Position numbers and translations under genes: made by a program
The notes under the pieces: model-generated
Told to the model about the DNA's origin: nothing
Seen by the model: only the letters and a program-made list of their open reading frames with translations
The model's database searches: none
Source: Yuukianura sp. NJ FZ-2021
Taxonomy: Eukaryota
Length of the DNA: 64,000 nucleotides
Direction of reading: 5' to 3'
Assembly (NCBI GenBank): GCA_046563655.1
Contig: CM102290.1
Location: 13,516,001 to 13,580,000 of the forward strand
In this document: positions 14,641-59,000 of the stretch, one piece after another
How the letters are laid out: every line of letters begins with the position of its first letter
How positions within the stretch are numbered: the first letter of the stretch is position 1

Positions 14641-15709
14641 CCGTATTTTCCCTAATAGTACACCATACCTAAATAGTACACCAGGTCCCTAATAGTACAC
14701 CACCCCCAGAAGTCGAAAAATTAATTAGTACACCGTCCCAAATAGTACACCAGGTCTCTAATAGTACACCAGGTCTTTGGTAATGTAGCATTTGGAGTAT
14801 AACACCCGGAGAAGTTAGTTGAGCTAATATTATAGCTCTTCATTTGTTGTGTTTATCTCCACGTTACTTCTCTAAAACTGTTCAACTAAAGTCGACTGGA
14901 AATGACAAGGCACACGCTACGCTTGTTCTAGCGGCCAAAGGTGACGGAACAAATCTGAAACCATTCATCGTTTTCAAACAGGGAATTCGAGAGGTAGCGA
15001 AGCTTCAAACCGAAACTGGGATCGTAATTCGTAGCAGTTCAAATGGTTGGATGAACGATAATCTGACCTGTGACTTGTTGAAAACTGTGTTCACACGATT
15101 TTCCTTCAAACATCGTTTGTTAGCTTGGGATTCTTACAAATGTCACTTCAGGAAATCTACTAAAAATGAACTCATTGGCTACAACACCACAATGACAGTG
15201 ATTCCCGGGGATGTACAAAGTATATTCAAGCTCCAGATTTGTGCTGGAATAAACCCTTCAAGGCTTGTATTACCGAACTTTACGATTCTTGGCTAGCAGG
15301 AGATTCCGACAAGGAGTATACAAAAGAAGGAGGGAATTTGAAGGTATTTCATAACTAATAATTTGTACTGTCGTAGGTTTCTTTTAAATATAATTTATAT
15401 AAATTCTTAATTATTAATGCTCCATCCAAGAAATTGATGACTAAATGGGTGAAGATTGCCTGGGATTCATTGTCAACTGAACTAATCAAAAACTCTGAAA
15501 GCTTCCGAAAACGAAGTGGAGTAGTTTTTAGTAATTTAGAAATTATTTTCTCCTGATTCCTAAACGTTTTAGTTAAGAATAAAATCCTCATTCTTAAAAA
15601 ATTAATTAGTACACCGTCTCTAATAATACACCAGGTCCCTAATAGTACACCACCCCCAGAAGTCGAAAACAAAATTAGTACACCAGGTGTACTATTTGGG
15701 AAAATACGG
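14641..15709 (+). mobile_element. Internally deleted pogo/Tigger-like DNA transposon with DDE_1 transposase remnant
   Basis: 24-bp TIRs (CCGTATTTTCCC[T/A]AATAGTACACC, 23/24 match), TA flanks and repeated subterminal AATAGTACACC motifs. ORF 14844-15296 has TLVLAAKGDG..LKPFIVFK, SSNGWM, LLAWDSYKCH and VIPG, followed by a frameshift. Confidence 0.9.
14844..15500 (+). pseudogene. Truncated, frameshifted pogo-family transposase
   Basis: Only the catalytic DDE_1 segment is present. The frame shifts after VIPG, and IQAPDLCWNKPFK continues in another frame. Confidence 0.85.
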
Positions 15710-35646: not shown

Positions 35647-35684
35647 TATAAAACCGTTTGCCAGTCATTTGAACAGCATCAGTC
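35647..35684 (+). promoter_or_regulatory. Vitellogenin core promoter (TATA box plus initiator)
   Basis: TATAAAA at 35647-35653 and an arthropod-type TCAGTC initiator at 35679-35684, about 110 nt upstream of the ATG at 35792. Confidence 0.6.
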
Positions 35685-35791: not shown

Positions 35792-38700
35792 ATGAAGGCA
35801 GTCGGCTGCCTCATCACCCTCTGCCTTTTGGGTAAGTTTTCAAAATTTCGAACTTGAAAAAACTTTTTGAAAATTGTCAAAATTTTATCATAATTTCTCT
35901 GTTTAGCCGGATTCATCGAAGCTTCTGACCAATATGCTTGGCAAGTTGGGAAGAGCTACAACTACAAGACCAAGGGACGACTAATGGCCGGAATTACTGA
36001 AATCAACACCCAATACGCCGGGATGGTTCTGTCTTACAGCATGGAACTCACGCCCATTGGTCCAAATCGGTTGATCCTGAAACCCGCGGATTTCAAAATT
36101 GAGGAACTCAATGAGGAACAAGATGGAGGCTGGAGAGACGTTCCTGAATTCAAGGGCGAAACTCCAGTTGAACTCAATCCTGAAATCCTCAAGTACTTGG
36201 AGTCACCCATCGAGGTATTTCTTTGCAAAATTTCATAAAAACATAAAATTTCAAATTTTGAAAAACGGAATTTCATATTTAAAAAAATATTAGGTCACAT
36301 TCGAAAAAGGTGTCGTCGAGTCCATCAAAGTTGACCGGAACATGCCAAACTACGCCATCAACATCAAGAGGGTAAGTTTTTCAAAGTAAAATTTAAGTAA
36401 ATTTTCAAAATTTTTAGCCGCGATGTTCAAAATTTGACGTTATTGTTTTTATTTTAGGCTCAAGTCAGCGCCTTCGTGCTTGACTCCACTGCTCAAAATG
36501 CCGTCATGACTGGAAACGCCAACCGTCAATTTCCAAACCAAGTGCGGCCACAAGACGCAACCACCCAAAGCGGCAGCTTCTATGAAACCATGGAGAAAAC
36601 CGTCACTGGAGAATGTAAACTCAAAATTCAAATTTTCAGTTTTGTCATTTTTAGAACCCGAAATCAAAAAATTTGATCCAAAATTCTGAAAATTTTCAGG
36701 CGAGACATACTACACCGTGAGCGAATCTGGTCCATACGACAGCCCACGTACGGATGAACTTAAGTCTCAGTTGGCCGATGACGACAACAGCGACAGTGCT
36801 GAGAACAAGGCAAGTGGAGAAAGTCGGCAACAGGATGACGAAAGCAGTGAAAGCGACGACGAAGACTGGAAACGGAACAAGTACATGGCCTACAAGGAAA
36901 TGATTCAGCGCAGCAGCGCCGAGGTAAATTCAAGCAAATTTTTCAAAAAAAAAATTTGTCCATAAATCAAAAAATTTCAAATCTCAAGTAGAAATTATGC
37001 TCAAGACTAATTTTTTTTTTGTTGATTTGTTTCCAGGAGGAAGGATTCTTGGCTCCCGAAGTTTTCCATAAGTTTTGCGATGGCAAGAACCGATTGATGG
37101 AGTTCGTCAAAACCGTGAACTACTCAATGTGCCACAAGAAGCCAGTTTTGGGCTACGCCAGCCCATCTCTCATCGTTGACAGCCGTGCTGGAGATAACAG
37201 CTTCGGATCTGCCATCTCTGTAAGAAATTCTCCATTTTGCTCAAATCGCAAAGAAAATCTGCATTTTGTCCTCAAATTTTGAAGAAATTCTGCATTTTTG
37301 TCCTCAAATTTTGAAGAAATTCTCCTTTTTTGTCAATTTTGAAAGGTCAACTTTGAAATTATTCCATTTTTTTTTAAACTTTCAGCGTGTCACCTACTCT
37401 CGCTACATTGTCTGCGGAACAGACCGGAAACAGTACACAATCCTCAAGATCGAACAAGAGGAGTACATGTACCAAGGAACTCTGCGCAAAGAGAAAGTTC
37501 TCGGCGGAACTGCCAAGAACACGACTCTGCGCAGTGTCCTCCCAACCAGCCGCACTCCCGTTGGACCCAGCAATCCAATCGAAACCGATTTGGTCTACAA
37601 GTTCAGCCCACAAGAACAAAAGATGCGCCGTGACGGAAAACTGAAAACGGGATTCGAATACCAAAGTGGGGATGATAGCTCCGAATCGAACGAAGACAGC
37701 AGCGAAACGACGCCGAAGTACCGTGCACGACGATCTGCTTACTACTATGCCCAACAGGCAGCACAGCAACCGGAAATGGAACAGAACCAGCAATACCCAT
37801 ACCAATACGCCGCAAACGGTAAGCCGAAATTTTGAAATTCAATTGATTTTGGCCAACTTTTTTTAAATTCAATTGATTTTGGCCAAATTTTTGAAATTTT
37901 GAACATTTTAGAGCCAAATGAACAAGGACTCTTGCCACTCCCAAGCTTGAACCAACCACCATTGAACCCCATGTTGGCCTCACCACTTAATGCTGACGGC
38001 ATGAAGGACCGTGTTGGAGTTCTGTTGGAGGAAGTTGTCCGTGATATCCTTGGCAACAAGCCAATCGCTGAGCAGGAAACTGTTTCAAAGATTGCCACCA
38101 TCGCCAAAATCCTTCGATACTTGTCAAATGCTGATTGCGAAGTTCTGTACCACCGTCATGCCGATAAGACGTAAGCACAAAATGCCTTAATTTCAGTTTA
38201 GCTTCTTTAAAAAAATTAAAAAAATGTTTTTGTGCAGCCAAACCGAAGAGGATCAGATCCGCCGCAAGATCTTCTTGGAAGCCGTAGCCATGGGTAAAAA
38301 AAAATTTTTTTTTTTTGAAAATTTTGAGAATTGAAAGGTTGTAACTTTTTCAAATTTTACCAATAGCCGGAACCAACCCGAACATCAAGCTTCTGATTGA
38401 CCTCATCGCTGCTCAACGTATCACCGGAGAGGATGCCAACCAACTTATCATGACCTTCTCCATGTACATCCGAACTCCAACACCCGAGCTCATCAAGTAC
38501 TGGCACGTAAGTAGTTCTTTCATCAAAACCAGAATCAAAATTTTTTCAAAAAAAGTTGTATTTTTCAAAATAATTTTCCTGTTTTTCAGGACAAACTTGT
38601 TGACTTCACTCCCAGCCCAGACAACATGGACCAACTTCACACCACTTCCTGGTTGGCTTTCACCAACTTGCTCCACGACGCCTGTGTTAACACCAAAATT

Positions 38701-41700
38701 GGTAATGTTTCAAACCTTGTTCATCTCAAATTTTTTGAAAATTTAATATTCTTTGACCAAAATCTTCAAAAATCTGTTTTTTTTTATGTGCAGCCAACAC
38801 ACGTTACCCAGTTCAAGTCTACGGAGAGTTCTGCAACCCGCAACTCGCTGGCCAGTACATTCCACACATTGTGAAGCACTTGAAATGGGCCTTGGAGCAA
38901 ATCTGCCACGACGAACACAGTGTCGGAGCCACCCATTGGGCCACCGTCTTCTTAGCTGCTCTCGGAAACACTGGACACCCACTTATCGTTGAAACCGTTC
39001 AACACGTTCTGGACACCGTGAGCGATCGCTACATCAAGAGCAAGGCCATCTTTGCTCTGAAGCGACTCGCCATCTCCCGATCTTCCCAGAATGTGCCAGT
39101 CACCGAACCAATGGCTGCTGACCGCAAGAGCCGGTACGACATATTTCAAATATTTCAATTTTTTTTTCAAATTTGAGCTGGGCGATGCAAAATCGTATGC
39201 TAAACGTATGTTTTTGCAGTGACATCTTGACTGATGAGGTTGTTGAGAAGAAGGTTCTGCCTGTTCTCCTCTCCGCTGCTTTGGACAAAACTGAAGACCA
39301 AGAAGTGCGCATGGCCGCTATCGCTATGGCTGTCCGTTGCACCCCAGCTGACATCACAATCTGGCAAACCTTGGCTTATTCAACATGGTTCGAGACCAAC
39401 CAAGAAGGTGAGTCCAATTTGTTTTCCAATTCAACTTAAAAAAAAACGAAATTTTGAAAAACGAAATTTTGAAATTTTTTTTAGTCATGTCATACATCTA
39501 CCACATGATGTCGAGCTTGTCCCACCTGAAGCACCCAGTCGATCCAACGACCTGGATTGCGTAAGTTACGAAAACAAAACGTTTAAGAAACGAAAACTAA
39601 CAACAATATTTTTTTTTAGACACAAGAAGGCTCGCGCCGTCTTCCCAATGGTCAAACCAATCAACATTGGACTTCCACGAAGCCGAACGTACCTCGAATC
39701 AGCCTGGTTTGACGAAATTCAATCCGGATTTAGGCACCAGTGGTCTCAATTTGGATCTGAAAACTCCGTTTACCCGAATTCCTTTTACTACCAAAACTAC
39801 AAGACGTACGGAAGTGGAGCCATTGCTGAGAGCCCAGTTGAATTTGCCGTCCATGGACACACCTTGAAGCACATCCTGGACCACATCGTCGGTAAATTCA
39901 CGCGTGTCACGCAGTCCGAAGCTGAAGGAAACGAACTCATCAAAATCATTTCCGACTTGCTCCACATTGTTGACCGGTAAGTTTCAAAATTTTTACGTTT
40001 CGCACTGTTTCTCGAACACTTATTTAAAATTTGTTGGTTGCAGTGAACAAGATGAGACTCCACAAGCCTCTCTCCAATTCAAACTCCGATCAGAAATGGA
40101 ACGCATCTTCTCTGTCAACCGAGAAGTCATTGACCTCTGGATTGAGCAATTGAAGAAAGAGTTCATGCCACAATTGATCACTGGATTCCCATTCAACTAC
40201 CAAAAGGCATGGAAATTGTCATCCGTCAACTACGAATTCCCAACCATCTTCGGTATTCCAATCCAAGTCAAGATGAGGTCACACAACTTGCTGTCGTTCC
40301 GTGGAGCCGTCAAGCCAATCCTGACTGAGGGCTTGAGAGACGTTCAGTTCAACATCGAAATGCACCCAATTGTGTCCTACAAGACTCATGGTCATGTTTC
40401 CATCAAATCTCCACTCACCGGAAAGGCCTACCAAGCTGGTAAGTTTCAAATTTTGGTTAATTTTCAAGAACGCGGGAATTGAATTCGAAATTTCCATTTT
40501 AGGTGTCCAACATCATGCCGTTCTCGAATTTCCATTCCGCGCTATGTTCAGAAAGACAGCTGTCGGAACCCTCGAATTTGCCATTTCCCCAACCTACATT
40601 GACGAACCAACCATCGGAGGACAAATTGACGTCTTCACCTTCCACCGTCGTGTAAGCGACCAATCAATTTAACAATTCGAAACTCGAAATTCGAAATTTG
40701 ACACTTACTTTTACCTCTTTACAGCCATACACCATCATCGTCCATGACGAGTGCTGGCCAACTTCCCACAAGGAGGGAGGCGAGATGAAGATCGTCCATG
40801 CCGTTGAGACTCCGTACAAGGAATCACAAGAATTCGGTCAGAAGGCTCTGGGATGGGCTTTTGAACTTGTTCAAGAGACGGAATACCAACCAGAAAAGGA
40901 GAAATACGCCGGATGGAGACAGTACTTCGCCAGATTCGGTGGCACTTATGGAGGATGGTTGCACCATGGATTCATGGGAGCTAAGACTCTTCGTCTTGCT
41001 GAACGCCGGTTGGTCCTGGACAGTGTCAAATCCACCACCAAAACACTCTGGATCATGGTTGCTGGAGGTAAGTCACGGGACTCTTATTCGGTAGATACAT
41101 TTCAAGGTTAATCATAACCTGTCACTTTTCCTTACCAGAATACCACCGACATGTTAAACACGCAGTTAACGAAGTATCGTCCGAAGAGGAACGAAACCTA
41201 CCGCAAGATTCTGACGAATCCGAGTCCGGAGAACAGCCCAAGTACTACCAGGTAAGCTATCAATTTTGAATTCGTTCTCAATTTCAGTTTTGATTGATTT
41301 TACAACTGATTTTTCAGGCCTACGACTCACAAACCGGTGACTACCAATCATACCAGGACAAGAAACTTCAACAGCGCCCATACCAACAGTACCATCAGTA
41401 CAAGGCTGAGCGATACCAAGCATCCCAGGAGAAAGACAGCAGCGAGGAGTCGTCCGAAGAGTACCAGGGAGAATTCAAATACTACTCTGGCAAACCCGAA
41501 AACTACCGAGCTTCATACGAACACTACGACCAAGCTTACTACCAAGCTTACCCATACCAATACCAAGGAGATTACCAATACCAAGGAGATTACCAATACC
41601 AAGGAGATTACCAATACCAAGGAGCTGAACCCACCGCTGCTCACCGTAAGTGCTCCATGTTGTAACCCATTTTCAATTCAAATCCAAATTTTACCGTAAC

Positions 41701-43904
41701 TTTTCAATTTTTAGACCACCGCTGGTATGTGATTGCCGTTCTCGGAAAGACTGCCCCACTTCACGCACCACTCAAACTCCGAAGCATGCAACTTCACTTC
41801 GAATCCTCTCCATCAACTGTCCAATACTTGCTCTACGTTGACGTCGCCAGGCAACTAACCCAAGTCAGCTGGTCTGCCGGAGAACCAACTAAGGAACACG
41901 TCGGAGAACTGCCAATGAACTCAGGCGCCGTTGAGAAGATCCGCAAGGCCATCCACTCTATTCTGACCAAGGGCCAGGAACCGTTCTGTGCTAAGTACGA
42001 AGGAAAATACCAGTTCCCAAGATGGGCTAACCGTGACAGTCTCTTGACTCTCCGTGAGAACCTCCTCCGCCAAGACCTTACCGTTAAGCTCCAGGGTGAA
42101 TTGGCGTTTGGCGACAACTGCCGCAACAAGGTCCACAATGTCACCTACACCGGAAAACTGTACCGTGACAACGACATGCTCGAGTACGCCAAGGATGGAT
42201 CATATGAAGCCCAACAGTGCAAGGAAGATGAGAAGAAGAAATTTGCATCCTCCCCAGTTTGCATCCTCAACAGCGAACAACAGGCAGCAGCTCTCAACGT
42301 AGCCGAATTCGAATTCAGGGTAAGAAATTCATTTCTTGTTCATCACAATTAGTATAATATTAATCACAATTAATGGTTGTTTGAACTTTGTTACAGTCGA
42401 CTCCACTTCCAGCTTCTGTTGTCAATGCTACTCTTCAAGTCCGAGAATTCTGCAAGGCCTGGTGGTACGAGTACATGTCTTATGACCCAATGCCAATTCG
42501 TCCAATGAGCCCAAGAATGATCGATCATTACTTGAGGGTCAAGGCCGAACTTACCCCAGAAATTGACTACTTGACACTCAAATTCTTCCGCCCTGATGAA
42601 CAAATCTTCTTTGAGGACATCAAATTGGGCCACTTCGCCAAGGCCGTATTCCCACTCACTGCCACGCAGACACTCAAGGAAAACGTCCGTGATCGCGTTT
42701 TCAAAACCGAAGGTATACCAGCGATTCTGATTCTAAATGCTAAATGTTGCTGTTGAATTCTAAACTTACCGAATTTGTTTATCATTTCAGCTTCATGCTC
42801 AGTCGAAAGCAAATATGTCAACACCTTCGACAATGTGACGTATCACTTTGACCCCGCCGCTGCCACTGGCTGCAAGCACGTCCTTATGCAAGACTGTAGC
42901 GGAGAACACGCCGTGTCCGTTTTTGCCGAAAACCTTGCCTCAGCCAACTTGATCACAACGGTTCTGCTTGAAGGCGACTTCCGAATCACGCTCATTCCAA
43001 CCATCAGACAACAGTATGCCCAAGAGTCCCGTGCCTACGTTACGGCCACGTCCGACAACGTCATCATTCCAGGCCAAGGACGAGTTCTTGTCAATGGAGA
43101 GCCAGTCAAGGAACTTCCAACTGTTGTCTACGACTCAAACGGACACTTCATTGCCCGCATTGAAGAAGCCGCTGGATCTGCCCTCCAACTGTTCTCAGAC
43201 GATGTCAAGGTCACAACTGACGGACGACACATCGTGGTCTACCCATCCAACGACCTCCGTAACAGCACTTGCGGTAAGTCTTCATCATAATACGCAGTGT
43301 TTCCTTTGAAATTGTTGAAAACGTTTGTTTTTCGTTTTCATCTTTAGGTCTTTGCGGTAACTTCGACGTGAGCAAGACGATTGACTTCCGCAGCCCAAGA
43401 GATTGTCCATTGAGCTCTGGAACGTACATGTACGCTGCCTATGCCTTCGAACTCCCAATGCCCAAGACTGATGCTGCCGCCATCCCACCAGTCAAAGTCT
43501 GCAAGATTGACGCTGAGGTGAAGAAGGAGATTGAGAAGGAGGACAGTGCCTGCCAGGGTGACGAATTCGTGCCACTGTACACCGATGATAAAGCCGGAAA
43601 CTGCAAGGAGGTATTGATCCAACAAATCGGGGATGCCGTCTACGGCATTGTCCGAAATGCTCTCAAACCAATCCCAGGCGTCAACGGAAAGAAGTGGGCC
43701 GAGAAGGCAAGAAACAAGGTCCGTGAGTTGCTCCAAGGAGCTGTCAACGCCAAGGATATTGCCGACATCATTGCCACCGGAATTGCCAGCATGATTCCGT
43801 ACGTCGGTGGAGTCGTGAAGCCCCTGATCAAGTTTGCCTGCGAGAAGATTGTCAAGGTCCTCTGCGAGAAATCTGGATGCTGTGATGCTGTCTACTACTT
43901 CTAA
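35792..43904 (+). CDS. Vg: Vitellogenin (large lipid transfer protein family), about 24 exons and roughly 2,000-2,100 aa by manual exon assembly
   Basis: Signal peptide MKAVGCLITLCLLAGFIEA. Vitellogenin_N start WQVGKSYNYKTKGRLMAG..QYAG, plus NIKR, VKTVNYSMC, LAALGNTG and EVRMAA motifs. Acidic Ser tracts with an RARR cleavage site. vWD domain (YVNTFDNVTY..CKHVLMQDC..TCGLCGNFD). GT-AG introns throughout, stop TAA at 43902-43904, AATAAA at 44122. Confidence 0.93.
41555..41626 (+). repeat. Coding 18-bp tandem repeat x4 in vitellogenin (YQYQGD)
   Basis: TACCAATACCAAGGAGAT three times exactly, plus a fourth copy ending GCT. Confidence 0.95.
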
Positions 43905-45166
43905 GCACCTAAACACAAACGGACGCAAAATCACATTTCAAAATCAATCTAAAACCTTAACTTATTAATTTCAGTTACCAAAATGTAGTAGTCTCTTCTA
44001 TCGTAGTTTGTATTGGCAGTCTTTTCCCTTCTTCTTCCGACCAGTTTTGTGTACAGCCCTCTCTTTGTCTCGTACAAACAGTTGACCTTGTACAATTTAA
44101 CATTCAGCTGAAGTTGGATTGAATAAACCCCCTGGCATTTAAAAAACATTGTTCTTCACTCTTACTTTATAACAAATACTTCATTGTTGTCCAGGGTCTG
44201 AGTAGCGGTAGGAAACGTGACCTGGTTTGGTTAAGCTTCCAGGAAGTAGTTTCTCGTGACCGAAAGGGCAGTAGGACAGAATGTAACGCCTGTGGACAAG
44301 AAATGGAAGGTCAAGTGGCACTTTTTAACTGCAAAGGTTCGAAAAATGTAATGGATTCCATTAGGAAGACAACGTCGCAGGCACTGCTTCCTATTCATTA
44401 TTTGGCCAATCTGATGCATCCTGTCTAACTTGGTAAGAAACTGTCGGAGCAAGTAATTGAGCTCGCCGTTACTTATGCAGCAGTTGAAAACGAAAGGGCT
44501 CCAGGAATTTTAGCAGTCTTTACACAGTACAGAGCACAAATGGGACCACTCCGAAAAGTTTTGTTTTCTAACACTGGTTTAAACGACATATCTGCTACGG
44601 GTTGGTAGAACTTATATTGTTTTTGTTTAATTAAAATTTCAAATTGATTCGAAAGGGTACCTAATGAAAATATGCCAGATCTTGGCACCCATTTTTAATT
44701 TATTGTTGTCTGAGTAGAACGTACCAAGTATTCAGGAATCAGCGAAGTAGCTATAAAACAGTTCTATTTGTCGGGTAAAGATATTGTGATCTTCTAATTG
44801 AAACTGATGCTTGATTACCTTCATCTTCACAGTTACAATTTTAGAAGCTTCAAATTATTGACATGTCTCATTCTGATTAGGTTAAACGTAACAGAAACGT
44901 AATGCTTTTCCCGTAAGAGCCGGGAAAAAAACTTACGTAGACTGTCCAATTGAATTTGGAAAATGTCAAGTGATGTTATTCAGCTTACAAAAATGGAAAT
45001 AACGTTAATCTGGAACAATTCGTTATTAAACTCCTTTTAAAGTCTTTATTAGATTACATGAAACTGAAACAGTAATGAAAAAGAACAATTACGAAACCAT
45101 TCTTCAAAGTGAAAATCTGTACTTGTCTGGAATAATAAAGGGAGGTAAGATGATTCGGCCTTGCCT

Positions 45167-45728
45167 TTAGACCAGCAGTTTCTCAATTTCTGTCTGGACC
45201 GATAGAATCTGTGGCTTGAGCTGCGATCCTTCGTTGGTAGTGACGGAGGCTGCAATTACTGGTCGTGAGACCCCGCATGCACGACCAAGGGCTGAAACCA
45301 AAGCAAACGTTGAATCTTTTTTCAATTTACGTCTTCTTACGTTGTTGGTGAATTGCTTAAGATTGTTTATGTTAATCCTACCTTGCTTGGATCTGACAAA
45401 GACGTATGGGACGTTCTTGTCTTCACAGAGCAAGGGAAGATGGAGAAGAATCTCCAGCGGTTCGGCATCTGCTGCCATCACGATGAATTCCGAGAGACCT
45501 CGGTTCAGCGTCTTGGTGGCTTCATTTGCCCCTTTCTTCAATTGCTGGTAGTTTGCTGCTTGCTGAACAATGTTCAGGATCTTTGTAGTCAAAGCAGCAT
45601 CAGCCAACGGGTAGGCTTTCGGATTGACCTCTTCCGTCTACAGTTTAAACAATTAATTTTAGTAATCAATTTGGTACTGAATGATAGCACCTATATAAAA
45701 AGCAACTCGAAGTTCTAGTACTTACCAT
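45167..45728 (-). CDS. SNU13: SNU13/NHP2L1 (15.5K, hoi-polloi) kink-turn-binding protein; exons 45726-45728, 45382-45637, 45167-45291; 127 aa
   Basis: The spliced product [48 protein letters not shown]...[35 protein letters not shown]...IEKLLV is the conserved 15.5K sequence. Splice sites are canonical. Confidence 0.97.
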
Positions 45729-48324: not shown

Positions 48325-49584
48325 TCAATCGTGCTCCATATCTTGCGATTCAAATATCTCAAAATAATCGTCAGAGCTAAAAGCTGAACGTAGCGTAGAT
48401 TTCACATCCTCTGTCAATTCCGCAGAATCCATCAACACTTTAAATTGATCTTTCGCCTCTTTTTTTGTTGTAATGTTATTTTTACAGTCATAACACATCT
48501 TTTGTGTGGGGCAACTGTGACCTGTGAAAGATATTTTTATTTCTGATACAGGAACCTTTAATTCATTTACAAATACCAATTCGGGATGTGTCCATTCGCC
48601 ATTCGCACTGTAACCTAATTCCCAATCGAAAGTATTCGTCTCAACCATTTTTAGTGGGGTTATTTGATCTCCATCATCATTAATGACTCCAAACTGTATA
48701 TGGTTAGGAGGTGAAGGAGAACTTGATTCTGGTATAAGTATGGTCTGGGAGTACTCGTACCAGAATTTTCTCGTACCAAATACATAACCTACCGGTTTAT
48801 CTCGGTCGAGGTGCGAAGTAGACTCAATTGAAAATTCAAAAATGACGGAGCCATAGCGATTATCTAGAACGTGTCTTTTGGGGTTTTCAGGTATATTGCG
48901 GACCTCATCTTCGTTGAGCACGACACCACACCAAACAAGGGGCGGCGTCGTACCCGGATTAGTAGAAGAATTGGTGAAAGTAATTTGTTGATTCTCGATC
49001 CCCTTAATAATTTGACGTGCGTTAACAGTTGATGTGGCATGCCTTAGCAGTCGTCCTTCAATTAACTTTATGTTAGTAGAATAATCGATGTCTTTTGGCA
49101 GGGTCAGTTCGTAGTCTGTTACAATATTAAGTGGACCTACATATCGTGGCCAAGATACAAAAGTTACAACTTCCGGTTCGTTAGAAAAATGGTGCTTCCA
49201 TAACTTAATCACTTCCACAATTTTTGTGATTAATCTTTGACTATTTTGTCGTCCCACTTCTTTAGCAGACGCCCATTGTGTGCATAGTTGTACAATTTTG
49301 GAAAGGCGATACTCTGGCTTCCGATTTATCATATAAAGCTGGTTGGATGTGTTTGGAGGAATTGGCGAAGTAATTCCACGGTGTATCGCTTCGATTATGA
49401 TCGTTGCAAAAAGAAACTGAACAGGCGCGGAAATTTTAGACTGCGCTCGTTGCATTGCAGCCCACAGTGTCCTTGCGTCGCCGTCGGCAATACGGACAAC
49501 GTACGTTACAGTTCGATGTTCTTCAAGTTGATTTGCAGCTGTAATCACTTGAGCAACTGTCTCCCAATCATCGACTTGCGTCAT
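48325..49584 (-). CDS. Single-coding-exon 419-aa protein; putative VHS-like N-terminal domain plus ADP-ribosyltransferase-like domain
   Basis: Longest uninterrupted ORF in the window, in AT-rich DNA. An acceptor (tttag at about 49600) just upstream of the ATG suggests a spliced 5' UTR. Domain calls are by motif resemblance only (see findings). Confidence 0.75.
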   Translation of the reverse strand: MTQVDDWETVAQVITAANQLEEHRTVTYVVRIADGDARTLWAAMQRAQSKISAPVQFLFATIIIEAIHRGITSPIPPNTSNQLYMINRKPEYRLSKIVQLCTQWASAKEVGRQNSQRLITKIVEVIKLWKHHFSNEPEVVTFVSWPRYVGPLNIVTDYELTLPKDIDYSTNIKLIEGRLLRHATSTVNARQIIKGIENQQITFTNSSTNPGTTPPLVWCGVVLNEDEVRNIPENPKRHVLDNRYGSVIFEFSIESTSHLDRDKPVGYVFGTRKFWYEYSQTILIPESSSPSPPNHIQFGVINDDGDQITPLKMVETNTFDWELGYSANGEWTHPELVFVNELKVPVSEIKISFTGHSCPTQKMCYDCKNNITTKKEAKDQFKVLMDSAELTEDVKSTLRSAFSSDDYFEIFESQDMEHD

Positions 49585-49832
49585 CGTTCAATCGGCTTTC
49601 TAAATTGTGTTCCAGTAAAAATAAAATTACACAGTTTTTAGCAGGGTGTCGGTGGTATAAACCATTTGATTTAAACCATGGCTTAAACCGCGGTTTCAAC
49701 CAATTGTTTGTTTGTTTTTCTTCGAAAAAAGCTTACAGTAACTCCATAACCGCCACATTGCTTTCCAAGCGGTGTTCTTTAATTAGTAACTGCCGACTAA
49801 CTTCGAGAAAAATATGCTTTATCAATGACGAC

Positions 49833-56060: not shown

Positions 56061-59000
56061 TTAGAGGTAAAGAATCCTGGACGAGTCATCGTCATCTTCA
56101 TTTTGACTGTAATTACTCTGTGTATATGGAATTCTCACTTGGTTTTGACCGTATGGAAAACCAGAATTAGTCATTGGAACTGGACTGCTTCCGGAACGAC
56201 GGTGAGCGACCTGCAGATTGCCATAACTGACTTGACCACGGACGGAATGCTTGTCCAGCACAGTCTCGTCTCGACCACCGTCCAAATCTAAGTTTTTGTA
56301 GTAGTTGCTCATCCTATCTGTCGCTCCAGGGAGGTACTGGGGCGAATTAAATCCTGAATTCGACGTTGGAATACTTGTACTCGACTTGCTATGGTGTAAA
56401 TGTGCTCGGGAATTTCGAGCAGTTACGTTTCCATTGGAACTGTCTAAGGACGGTTGTTTCATATCTGAAGCAGTCTTGGGACCTACGCCACGCGGGAGGC
56501 TAGAAGCCTTTTGAGCAGCTAAACCTTCACTGAGGCGGAGTGGCAGTACTTGCTGAATACTTGGTGAACTGGATCCTGCAGAGGATAGTCGTGTAACTCT
56601 TCCCACCGGATTTCTGCTGCTTTCGTTTGGACTTTGCGTTGGCACGGGAACATTAGTCGGACTTCCCTTGGATACTGGAACTGTCGAAGTTTTTGCCAAT
56701 TGCTTAAGGTTTTCCGGAGTAATCAAGCTGCTCGTGGTGTTGCTCCTGACGAGCTGCGAAGATGCGAGGTGTAATGGTAATTGTTGCTTGGTTCCAGTTG
56801 ACACGGTGGCTAAATTGGGTGGAATGGTTGGTTGAGGCACTTGGGACGGAGATCGTCTAGCTGTGACTGCAGGAGCAGCCTTGTCAAAGTTAGTGGTAAC
56901 AGATATCGGTGAAATCGTCACAGAGTCTAAGAAAGGTTTGATTCCTTGGGACTCAAGCTTTTCCAGTTTTCTGAAAAATCAAAATCAGTTAGCCATAAAC
57001 CGTGCCATGCGTCCACAAAATATAGTGTTTTTAGTGATCCTGTACCTGTAAAGTTGTTCGCGCTGATGGCTAATATCAATTTCCTGTTTTTGCAAAGCCT
57101 CTTTGCGTGAATTCAGCTCCTGTCGCTCACGCAGAATCTCTTGCTTCTGACGTGAAAATGACTGCTGCCAGCTCCCTTTGTCTGATTCGAATCTTTGTTG
57201 TGCTTCTCTTAGTTCCTCCATCCTTCGCTGGTGTCCATTATTTTGAGAAACATTCAGCGACAGATTTGGAACCATTTGTAAGAACATTTCTCCACAGACA
57301 TCAGATAGCTGAATGACAAGCTAAAACAAACGGATAACATCAGTTAGACTCAGCTTATCTCCAAAGTAAGCAAAATCACATGATCATGTGAGGAATTTTA
57401 CCTGCGATAGGATTTTGCTGCTTGTTGTTCCATTGGCGTCGAGGGAAGATCTCTGCTGACTGTCGAACCCGCCAAAAGTATCTGCACGACGCGGCAATCC
57501 TAATACAGTCGTAACATGCTCGCTGACACAACTTGCGCTTCTATTCACCGTGTTTGAATTGACATCCATAGTATTAATAGTTTTCTGAACTTCCTGTAAC
57601 AAAATAAGGAGAAATATCTTGCTTAAACATTGTTACTAACACAGGGTACTGCCAAGTATTGAATTGGAAATCTTACAGTAACGGCTTCCGATAAAGCACT
57701 CAGCACTCTATCTTTTCCTTCAAAAGAATTAGATGTCCAGTAATATGGTTTATCTGCTCTTAAAGACTCAACCAATTTCGACCGTGTCTTTAGTAGATGT
57801 AAGATTTTCTTGTCGTGTTCATGTAGCTCATCTAGTCCTCGCAGAGCCCTGTACTCTGCTCCCTCCACAGATTCCGCAAGATCATCATCGAGATCAGAGA
57901 AAAGATCCAACTCTTCTTCAAACAAAATTTGTGCATCCCTAAACACCAAATTCACAAATGAACACAAGAAATTCGCTAAAAGTCAAATAATAGAAGAACA
58001 ACTTACCTCAAGGCGGTTAGCCAAGTCGGCCGATTTGCCGGGTTCTTGATATGGAGCTCAATCATCTCAGGCTTTTTGGATCCCGTGCCCATTACAAGAT
58101 ACAATGACATTTCATGTCCAGCGTTTTCCCTTACAATGATATTGTTGAGCATCACAAGTCCAAGCTACAAATTACACAAAATATTAATCAAAATTAATAA
58201 ATAGATAAATATTTATAAAAAATAATAACTTCATTTTCAAGACTTACGGGTGACACAAAGCAAACTTTCCCGCCAACATCCTGGGTGCAGACCATTGAAT
58301 CAGTGAGGAGGAGGACATTACATACTCCAAGAGACGTAATATTTCCGTTCACAATTCTGCTAACTACGGCAACTCCGTTGAAGAGGAGCCGTCGGTTTGA
58401 CAGTGTGAGCAGATCATTTGCTCGGATCCTACGCTGCCCATCGTAAATAATACTTTTGGGATCAATTTTTGAGCAGGCTTCGGCGAGACGTTCTCTTTCT
58501 GCAACTCGCTCATTCACACGAGAATTCAGTTCTTTGCAAGACGTCAACGCTTTCCGCAACTCCTCCCTTTCCAGTGGACACACATTGGTTTTGATGAGAG
58601 GTTCCAGCAGGAGAGGATACTTGGTGATTCGCTGAGCAACTAGCAACAGACATTCTGTCACATTCTTCCTACCCAGCAAAGACTGAAAGTAAAAACAAAC
58701 AAAAAAGTTTAGAATTAATTTTTTTTTAAATAACAAAAATGGCTCTTATCATAGTTTTGCTGAAATCCAAAATATAGATTGAAAGATTACTCACTTCCTT
58801 GTTCCAACCTGATACCAAAGTGGCAAACTTTTGGTCTTTCTGTTTCATGACCTTGAAAGTTTCGAATGACTTTTCCAATGATGAGCACAAAAGGCCATAG
58901 AGACGAATCATCTGTAACCACTGATCTCCGGAAAATTGTTCCATCAACACATCAGCCAAAGTATCCAGAGGTTCATCTCGTGTCCAAAAATCCAGTTGCT

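Follow-up and report, generated by a model that had tools for sequence, protein, structure and literature searches.

The vitellogenin gene that we analyzed ends in a basic, predicted helical domain of 102 amino acids in the place where vitellogenins usually carry a Cys-rich terminus. The best explanation is that this tail belongs to a domain family that has not been described before, is restricted to one lineage, and carries the signature C-x(85-105)-C-x4-CC. The gene lies within a 64,000-nucleotide stretch of contig CM102290.1 of Yuukianura sp., here called the window, and all nucleotide positions below are those of the window. An earlier reading made from the letters of the window, here called the sequence-only reading, had described the usual C-terminus as missing and a helical, basic module as standing in its stead, and our analysis bore out this replacement.

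The vitellogenin gene of the window

The window gene is an intact, expressed arthropod-type vitellogenin (Table 1). The gene model, obtained by heuristic guided splice-site chaining, has 23 exons and 1958 amino acids with no internal stops; what it treats as a 608-nt intron (41107-41714) is probably coding low-complexity sequence. The N-terminus (MKAVGCLITLCLLAGF..) is a signal peptide at the vitellogenin start, and no SOD-like domain follows exon 1 in this gene. Among single exons, Pfam matched Vitellogenin_N at 35909-36214 (38.2 bits) and 38796-39131 (35.7 bits; cut-off, 24) and the open beta-sheet domain (Vit_open_b-sht/DUF1943) at 40045-40437 (36.5 bits; cut-off, 23.7), with a second stretch at 39621-39974 reaching 21.7 bits against the same cut-off. 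VWD matched at 42793-43272 (34 bits; cut-off, 22.9), and the start of the last exon encodes this domain's GLCGNFD motif. [quoted passage not shown] The N-terminal lipoprotein domain, the open beta-sheet, the vWD domain with GLCG, and the signal peptide together with an R-x-K/R-R site, all of which we looked for as marks of a vitellogenin, were thus present. Rfam gave zero matches on the whole window.

Transcription is supported by an RNA contig from metatranscriptome run X1 in which 43272/43273 is connected with 43347/43348 and a single mismatch occurs over 257 nt (99.6%). A second X1 contig, of 92% identity, spans 43531-43711 and reaches 116 nt into the tail. RNA coverage consists of these two short contigs of one run and ends at 43711; the bare stretch 43712-43904 speaks neither for nor against transcription there.

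Table 1. Positions of the vitellogenin gene, its C-terminal domain, and flanking signals in the window.
Feature	Position	Strand	Evidence
TATAAAA box, ~140 nt 5' of start codon	35647..35653	+	sequence reading; putative function
Vitellogenin gene, ATG 35792 to stop	35792..43904	+	tblastn with P0005 and P0009; guided splice-site chaining
Exon 1, MKAVGCLITLCLL..., signal peptide start	35792..35831	+	matches P0009 N-terminus MKAVGCLVGLCLLAG
Exon with most of vWD domain	42791..43273	+	Pfam VWD 34 bits, E 4.6e-08, profile positions 1-136 of 156
Last intron, 74 nt, GT..AG	43274..43347	+	RNA contig junction
Last-exon part before tail, including linker	43348..43595	+	translation; alignment A1
C-terminal domain of 102 aa, predicted helical	43596..43901	+	translation, alignment A1, AlphaFold2, hhalign
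Predicted helices H1 / H2 / H3 / H4	43602-43664 / 43686-43730 / 43749-43787 / 43806-43874	+	AlphaFold2
Conserved Cys codons	43602-04 (C3), 43863-65 (C90), 43878-83 (C95, C96)	+	alignment A1
C82, Cys without conservation	43839-41	+	alignment A1
Stop codon TAA	43902..43904	+	sequence reading
AATAAA polyadenylation signal (putative use), ~220 nt past stop	44122..44127	+	sequence reading; same layout in L001

A basic tail in the cystine-knot slot

As the sequence-only reading had it, the tail continues in frame from the GLCGNFD of the vWD domain: one open reading frame runs from 43278 to 43904 and ends in the TAA, and the 100-aa peptide quoted there is identical to residues 3-102 of the + strand translation of 43596-43901. 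Its count of 15 K/R against 9 D/E also proved correct, giving a net charge of +6, and the tail has a pI of 9.17 versus 6.34 for the remainder of the gene model. The two motifs that had been singled out, IPGVNG (residues 26-31) and IPYVGG (residues 67-72), are both present and both fall in predicted turns between helices. Four of the five cysteines (at residues 3, 82, 90, 95, and 96) are conserved, namely, C3, C90, C95, and C96. The longest uncharged run spans 17 aa (residues 58-74). Because this run is broken by K, E, or R in P0003, P0006, and P0007 (three of the four other tails that align there without gaps), a conserved hydrophobic hairpin is, on the aligned sequences, absent from the tail.

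Vitellogenins usually end in a CTCK domain that sits on a flexible linker and whose function is described as unresolved (PMC12214520; bioRxiv 10.64898/2026.05.25.727680). The honey bee study proposes the CTCK as a candidate for dimerization (PMC12214520), whereas the CTCK of Aedes is reported to be monomeric and to lie outside the intermolecular contacts (bioRxiv 10.64898/2026.05.25.727680). We found no relic of a CTCK downstream of the window gene in a relaxed tblastn search (best + strand matches, E > 7), nor did any sequence in the vicinity of the gene resemble the Cys-rich ends of P0004 and P0005. The tail resembles the insect CTCK in being a small, Cys-stabilized domain that follows the vWD domain and a linker. 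However, beta-strands and paired cysteines make up the cystine knot of the CTCK, whereas the tail is predicted to be all-helical (four helices and no strand), has four conserved cysteines, and has no sequence similarity to the knot. The linker that leads from the vWD domain to the tail is also kept in vitellogenins with Cys-rich ends.

Conservation and relatives of the tail

Among 1,835,955,588 representatives searched, four proteins matched the tail at an E value of ≤0.001, and all four also did so at ≤1e-10. Their tails are 73, 58, 51, and 39% identical to that of the window gene, and in three of the four, a vWD end precedes the tail. A scan of metagenome DNA added L001, an intronless, mRNA-like contig of 6550 nt with a vitellogenin open reading frame of 2097 aa; it ends in the same C-terminal domain (48% identity to the tail), followed by AATAAA. 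The Logan-derived protein P0010 is 100% identical to the L001 protein over the 448 C-terminal residues searched. All relatives found come from environmental JGI or Logan data and are labeled "hypothetical protein" or are unnamed.

Judged by identity, conservation of the tail equals or exceeds that of the vWD region upstream: P0003 is 73% identical in the tail versus 63% in the vWD region, and the vWD region of P0009 is 42 to 44% identical, versus 48% for the tail (L001). Invariant residues in alignment A1 are C3, C90, C95, and C96, together with W34, R39, P27, and P68. Net charge is positive in 19 of 20 modules of the family, but it is not obligatory, as the tail of the orthologue P0007 is acidic (net charge, −5; pI, 4.95).

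We propose to recognize the family by its position after the vWD domain and a two-Cys linker, an N-terminal Cys, a basic helix containing W, the C-x4-CC end, and four predicted helices, and the tail has each of these features. An HMM built from 6 tails matched P0015 at 2025-2135 (29 bits) and P0021 at 1053-1151 (22 bits). With hhalign, the tails aligned to module 1 of seven longer vitellogenins (97.1%; E value, 6.3e-11; 97 columns), and module 1 aligned to module 2 (75.7%; E value, 2.4e-5). The modules of these longer proteins (P0012-P0016, P0019, and P0021) have the N-terminal Cys, the W-containing basic helix, and the C-x4-CC end in common with the tail. The longer proteins differ in carrying two modules with acidic linkers between them, long Q/N-rich spacers before them, and two extra cysteines in module 1, whereas the window gene has one module, a short linker, and one of the two extra cysteines (C82). 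These alignments are best explained by a module that occurs once in the clade of the window gene and twice in its sister group of longer vitellogenins.

The single-module vitellogenins formed one clade with a support of 100/100. The split between helical and Cys-rich ends needs only one change on the unrooted tree, with a support of 70/41 and presence in 68% of bootstrap trees. A Cys-rich tail ends ten other relatives, a label given by eye, and Pfam finds no CTCK model in P0005. The vitellogenins nearest to the helical group also have a Cys-rich end. The objection that the tail might simply be the standard vitellogenin C-terminus of its lineage is half right: it is the standard end of its own clade and homologous to module 1 of the sister group, but not the end of the nearest vitellogenins beyond.

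On the metagenome contig L002, the domain may be encoded by itself: a candidate stand-alone gene there has a TATA box, an N-terminus that is hydrophobic and starts from an ATG at 2802, and AATAAA, although the stretch might instead be the last exon of a larger gene, spliced in at about 2851. Such a gene suggests that the domain may work free of vitellogenin, which fits effector and binding roles alike. As far as sequence searches go, neither Pfam nor the PDB contains the tail family, which has so far been met in environmental data only. Our searches of the full-text literature did not find a published description of a helical C-terminal domain on a vitellogenin, which is not proof of absence.

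Predicted fold

The AlphaFold2 model of the tail (m01a1e457f668; alignment depth, 5 sequences) has four helices at residues 3-23, 31-45, 52-64, and 71-93 and no strands, with a mean pLDDT of 86.4 and a pTM of 0.80. On this model, the tail is best explained as an independently folding, up-and-down four-helix bundle of ~100 aa, and the helical character ascribed to it earlier is backed by the prediction. The accompanying claim of amphipathicity applies to two of the helices. The hydrophobic moment was 0.63 for H2 (36 of 2000 shuffles as high) and 0.48 for H3 (52 of 2000), whereas shuffles were as high in 189 of 2000 cases for H1 and in 573 of 2000 for H4. An internal duplication, which had been suggested from the two turns, was not borne out: hhalign gave the two halves a probability of 2%, and their Smith-Waterman score was matched by 318 of 2000 shuffles.

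Foldseek comparisons of both tail models with the PDB gave nothing at an E value of ≤0.001. In VIA-align (a wide search and a second look), the best Z scores, 8.2 to 8.6, belonged to the helical subdomain of phenylalanine ammonia-lyase and lie in the noise range for helical bundles, as do those of spider egg-case silk domains (6.2 to 6.5). The best 50 of the two structure comparisons included no chain of a saposin, NK-lysin, AS-48, or a colicin, a result that does not exclude them.

Comparison with membrane-active and lipid-binding proteins

In Pfam, the tail matched neither SapB nor bacteriocin families at an E value of ≤10, including the circular bacteriocin profiles PF09221 and PF16942; the only match was eIF-6 (E value, 0.098). 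A profile search of the PDB gave matches only in the vWD part (von Willebrand factor and honey bee vitellogenin, 9ENR), and a word-index search at near length found 0 of 4 candidates. A PDB sequence match to a designed repeat protein (8vd6) was rejected as a summation artifact, as it consisted of five stretches with i-Evalues of 17 to 190 each. By language-model features in the ESM Atlas, unnamed Bacillota clusters scored best (0.83) and circular bacteriocin clusters scored 0.76, but scores below 0.9 serve only as leads, shuffled proteins attain 0.8 in a third of cases, and 0.76 is below the meaningful range.

Saposins, NK-lysin, and amoebapores (SAPLIPs) have six conserved cysteines in three disulfides, with two cysteines close to the N-terminus, two close to the C-terminus, and two midway, and NK-lysin is cationic. 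The tail is like them in being a small helical bundle, presumably disulfide stapled, with its first and last helices tied. The ending that had been called saposin-like was not supported by this comparison, as the tail has one N-terminal and three C-terminal conserved cysteines in place of the six-Cys, three-disulfide pattern and lacks a SapB match. Circular bacteriocins are bacterial, leader-cleaved, head-to-tail cyclized, and Cys-free proteins of ~58 to 70 aa. The tail shares with AS-48, circularin A, and carnocyclin a compact (by prediction), cationic, helical character, but it forms the last 102 aa of a ~2000-aa protein from a eukaryotic, multi-exon gene and carries cysteines presumed to be disulfide bonded. 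Colicin pore domains are bundles of about 10 helices that bury a hydrophobic hairpin of ~35 to 40 uncharged residues; the tail has 102 residues, four predicted helices, and the much shorter uncharged run described above.

A bacterial origin of the tail found no backing either among the 1.84 billion representatives or in a scan of prokaryote genomes. The lone match of that scan (L003) was rejected: it comprised 43 pattern-anchored residues of a doubtful, overlapping open reading frame in a GC-rich genome.

Apolipophorin III and the N-terminal domain of apoE are up-and-down amphipathic bundles on lipoproteins, and a basic helix of apoE does the binding. The tail resembles them in its possible mode of working, with no match in sequence or specific fold, and unlike these bundles, it is covalently fused and, as predicted, disulfide stapled, which would limit opening of the bundle. 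Daphnia offers a further case of a lineage-specific domain added to a crustacean vitellogenin, namely, an SOD-like fusion (PMC2678069), but that domain is N-terminal and has a known enzyme fold, whereas the tail is C-terminal and belongs to no known family.

Possible functions of the tail

We propose, with middling confidence, that the tail is a tethered, disulfide-stapled, basic binding domain in the CTCK slot. Disulfides between C3 and the C-x4-CC cluster would close the four-helix bundle, with C3 presumably bonded to C95 or C96 and C90 to the remaining one, and because no convertase site precedes the tail, the domain would stay covalently attached to the large yolk-protein subunit. The conserved, basic, amphipathic helix 2 (GKKWAEKARNKVREL; W34 and R39 are A1-invariant) would probably bind an anionic surface, with phospholipid or lipid cargo, or acidic yolk or microbial surfaces, as the most likely partner. 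The domain would thereby take over the CTCK's accessory role, which is still undefined, and it would not form pores. As a separate point, which speaks against tethering, cleavage by yolk cathepsins could free the domain in the embryo although a convertase site is lacking.

Two other readings would give the tail a different task. The sequence-only reading saw in it a membrane-permeabilizing, antimicrobial, or anti-predator domain in eggs, similar to NK-lysin and saposins or to AS-48 and either released or attached. The positive charge of the tail and of most modules fits this reading, although the acidic tail of P0007 does not, and the compact, disulfide-stapled bundle predicted for the tail has two clearly amphipathic helices but neither a conserved hydrophobic hairpin nor the cysteine pattern of saposins. 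The resemblance to circular bacteriocin clusters is weak, in a range of scores that shuffles also attain, and is joined by no Pfam match and no bacterial homologue. L002 may hold a secreted, stand-alone version, whereas the tail itself has no cleavage site to release it. Immune roles are known for vitellogenins (PMC4632452; PMC7949091). On balance, we regard this reading as unlikely. A role in protein-protein interaction, in which the domain replaces the dimerization proposed for the CTCK or adds a receptor-binding site, is only slightly less improbable. Basic residues are what LDL-receptor-type receptors recognize in apoE and RAP, and helix 2 of the tail is basic and conserved, but receptor binding is usually assigned to the N-terminal region of vitellogenin. 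The presence of two modules in the sister group is as expected of an interaction module. The tail is also tethered at the position of the CTCK, the dimerization candidate of the honey bee (PMC12214520); the Aedes CTCK is reported to be monomeric, however, so the replaced role is itself doubtful (bioRxiv 10.64898/2026.05.25.727680).

It is also conceivable, but quite improbable, that the tail has no specific function and replaced a dispensable CTCK after a rearrangement at the 3' end. The CTCK has no proven function, and fish type-C vitellogenins are described as entirely lacking both vWD and CTCK domains (PMC12214520). Against this stand the conservation of the tail, which equals or exceeds that of the vWD region, the retention of four invariant cysteines and a confidently predicted fold down to 39% identity, and the persistence of the family through a duplication. 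That the tail is an artifact (read-through into noncoding sequence, a misassembly, or a pseudogene end) is hardly credible, as the frame is open and conserved in the independent JGI and Logan data sets, RNA covers its start, a proper stop is followed by AATAAA, and the upstream gene is intact.

A whole clade appears to have exchanged the cystine knot for an unrelated helical domain with a confidently predicted fold, which has stayed under constraint and in the sister group has even been duplicated, and this makes these vitellogenins a natural experiment. The exchange indicates that the C-terminal slot has a function but is not bound to a single fold. The domain is small and easily expressed, and its binding partner can be determined. 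A bolder and doubtful view is that the family consists of maternally provisioned, cationic host-defense or lipid-active domains that were recruited by a clade of arthropod vitellogenins in place of the cystine knot, duplicated in the sister group, and also occur as a free secreted protein, as on L002. If that view were true, the yolk protein would at the same time carry a membrane-active or microbe-binding effector into eggs, and if the effector proved antimicrobial, mothers would have a new way of protecting their eggs.

A vitellogenin gene ending in a helical domain

A single vitellogenin gene was mapped by tblastn with two environmental vitellogenins (P0005 and P0009). Guided splice-site chaining, a heuristic procedure, gave a model of 23 exons and 1958 aa with no internal stops. 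The 608-nt 'intron' of this model contains a perfect tandem repeat encoding YQYQGD within an open Ser/Glu/Tyr/Gln-rich frame, and the skipped segment is probably coding low-complexity yolk-protein sequence, comparable to the Q-rich stretch of P0009. The exons exceed the Pfam cut-offs for Vitellogenin_N, Vit_open_b-sht, and VWD, and the closest full-length relative has honey bee vitellogenin 9ENR as its sole PDB match (E 4.9e-43). The SOD-like domain known from Daphnia vitellogenins (PMC2678069) is absent from the gene in the window.

Features of the vitellogenin gene and its surroundings (window positions)
Feature	Position	Strand	Remark
DDE_1 transposase fragment	14823-15293	+	36 bits
TATAAAA box	35647-35653	+	5' end of vitellogenin gene
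Vitellogenin gene	35792-43904	+	
ATG start	35792	+	encodes MKAVGCLITLCLL, then 75-nt intron
Minisatellite	37222-37330		32 nt x 3.5; in or beside vitellogenin intron
Minisatellite	37830-37898		30 nt x 2.3; in or beside vitellogenin intron
Modelled 'intron'	41107-41714		skipped by model
YQYQGD repeat	41555-41624		18 nt x 3.9
Antisense open frame	43344-43937	-	197 aa; spans entire last exon
Tail	43596-43901	+	102 aa
Stop codon TAA	43902-43904	+	ends tail
AATAAA	44122-44127	+	downstream of stop
L7Ae/L30e/S12e-family ribosomal or snoRNP protein exon	45170-45637	-	Pfam 77 bits; ~1.3 kb downstream of vitellogenin stop, convergent
Long ORF	48328-49587	-	no Pfam match
Long ORF	56064-56978	-	no Pfam match
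RhoGEF domain fragment	58197-58745	-	30 bits

The GLCGNFD motif closing the vWD domain shares exon and frame with the tail, and residues 3-102 of the tail match exactly the peptide quoted in the sequence-only reading. The charges counted there (15 K/R, 9 D/E) are correct and correspond to a pI of 9.17, and both IPxVxG turns are present. The internal duplication that these turns had suggested was not borne out: hhalign of the two halves gave 2%, and their Smith-Waterman score was reached by 318 of 2000 shuffles. No second copy of the tail was found within the window by tblastn. The antisense frame, for which there is no coding evidence, probably just reflects codon composition.

Even when given just the last exon, AlphaFold2 placed helices over the tail (block means up to 86), and with a five-sequence alignment the 102 residues reached a pLDDT of 86.4 and a pTM of 0.80, with predicted helices at residues 3-23, 31-45, 52-64, and 71-93. 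We describe the tail as a predicted four-helix bundle with no assignable family because Foldseek with the tail models returned nothing at E <= 0.001 and the best VIA-align Z (8.2-8.6, to the helical subdomain of phenylalanine ammonia-lyase, among 48,161 chains plus Foldseek's best 577) is uninformative for helical bundles.

Relatives and expression of the tail

No Pfam family matched the tail, and the only PDB sequence match was rejected as a repeat-summation artefact. An exhaustive phmmer search of 1,835,955,588 representative proteins returned four matches (E 2.8e-43 to 9.9e-15), all unnamed singletons from JGI or Logan data; the end of vWD precedes the domain in three, P0008 being the exception. 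Bacterial homologues, for which the sequence-only reading had proposed a check, were found neither among these representatives nor in a prokaryote genome scan, whose sole, pattern-anchored match was rejected (43 residues only, doubtful ORF). Invariant residues in the five-sequence alignment include C3, C90, C95, C96, P27, N30, W34, R39, and P68. The tail is 73, 58, 51, and 39% identical to its four relatives and 48% identical to that of the metagenome contig L001; because its identity at least equals that of the vWD region, we consider it to be under constraint.

A 257-nt RNA contig from one metatranscriptome run joins 43272/3 to 43347/8 with one mismatch, removing a 74-nt GT..AG intron. A second contig from that run, 92% identical, spans 43531-43711, and RNA cover of the tail in this run is confined to the first 116 nt reached there, a gap that carries no weight in either direction. 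Thirteen of its 14 differences from the window are listed; all lie within 43588-43645, in the linker and where helix 1 begins, and most of them change the amino acid, with none listed over the remainder of the span. The contig thus resembles a paralogue, or an allele, that has diverged in one local patch. Independent support for expression comes from L001, a 6550-nt intronless, mRNA-like contig whose ORF encodes a 2097-aa vitellogenin with Vitellogenin_N, open beta-sheet, and VWD domains and the same helical domain at its end, followed by a stop and then AATAAA. Over the 448 C-terminal residues of this vitellogenin used for searching, a Logan-derived protein shows 100% identity.

With these 448 residues as the query, 18 vitellogenins were returned, all environmental: one ended in a single helical module, seven in a long two-module extension, and ten in a Cys-rich, non-helical end of the ..C..VP..CVRGY type, a class assigned by eye (Pfam found no CTCK in P0005). 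The two-module proteins (P0012-P0016, P0019, and P0021; six of 1926-2307 aa, P0021 of 1304 aa) carry a long Q/N-rich spacer, then modules split by an acidic Ser/Glu/Asp linker. Their Cys spacing is constant in all seven (0, +66, +83, +102, +107, +108). An HMM from six tails matched P0015 with 29 bits and P0021 with 22 bits, each where expected, and the tail alignment matched module 1 in hhalign with 97.1% probability (E 6.3e-11, 97 columns); modules 1 and 2 are weakly similar (75.7%, E 2.4e-5). C82 of the window tail, which is not conserved, is the counterpart of one cysteine of module 1's extra pair.

A maximum likelihood tree of 22 rows was built on stretches of at most 600 residues that stop 80 residues past the vWD G-x-C-G motif and so exclude the helical and Cys-rich ends. 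Left out were P0007 (too short), P0008 (lacking any vitellogenin part), and P0010 (the same as P0009 wherever the two were compared). The four single-module vitellogenins form one clade (100/100). A single switch between the helical and the Cys-rich type of end suffices, on a weak branch (70/41); as the tree is unrooted, gain is indistinguishable from loss.

A homologue of 39% identity lies in an ORF in the region 2650-3440 of L002, a genomic metagenome contig (6779 nt, 39% GC) with no vitellogenin exons anywhere along its length. A TATA-like box accompanies this ORF, its ATG at 2802 opens a hydrophobic N-terminus, and AATAAA follows downstream; it may be a stand-alone secreted form. We grade it a candidate stand-alone gene because a run of pyrimidines closed by AG near 2850 may instead mark a 3' splice site.

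Possible roles of the tail

The sequence-only reading proposed that the tail is a membrane-active module with which the yolk protein could deliver an antimicrobial or anti-predator effector into eggs. Its cationic character holds for 19 of 20 modules, which are net positive, but not for the P0007 tail (-5); amphipathicity, a trait expected of any helical bundle, is clear in helices 2 and 3 only. The proposed saposin-like ending lacks the saposin cysteine pattern in the five-sequence alignment, and there is no hydrophobic hairpin of colicin type, since uncharged residues run on for at most 17 aa, in a stretch that is not conserved. Release of a fragment would find no R-x-K/R-R or RxxR site between vWD and tail (the gene model has a single R-x-K/R-R site, RARR at residue 454), and the ESM-Atlas score against circular bacteriocins, 0.76, is below the meaningful range. 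We regard such an effector as distinctly unlikely, and a protein-protein or receptor role for the conserved bundle as rather unlikely. That a tail with this level of identity lacks a specific function seems highly improbable, and that a domain recurring on an mRNA-like contig is an artefact, extremely so.

The usual vitellogenin C-terminus is, according to the honey bee cryo-EM (PMC12214520) and Aedes CTCK (bioRxiv 10.64898/2026.05.25.727680) reports, a flexibly linked cystine knot, its function unresolved. The vitellogenins of this clade carry in that position an unrelated, basic, predicted helical bundle, probably stapled by disulfides; a full-text literature search, judged from its result entries, returned no description of a helical C-terminal domain on a vitellogenin. 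We give about an even chance to the tail being a tethered module that binds anionic surfaces. The structural and evolutionary side of this statement has good support, and its function is what we infer. The tail would stay tethered to the yolk protein, and its conserved basic helix 2 would bind an anionic surface, candidate partners being lipid or phospholipid cargo, acidic yolk surfaces, and microbial surfaces. What is new is an undescribed C-terminal domain family, and its carrier is an ordinary vitellogenin.
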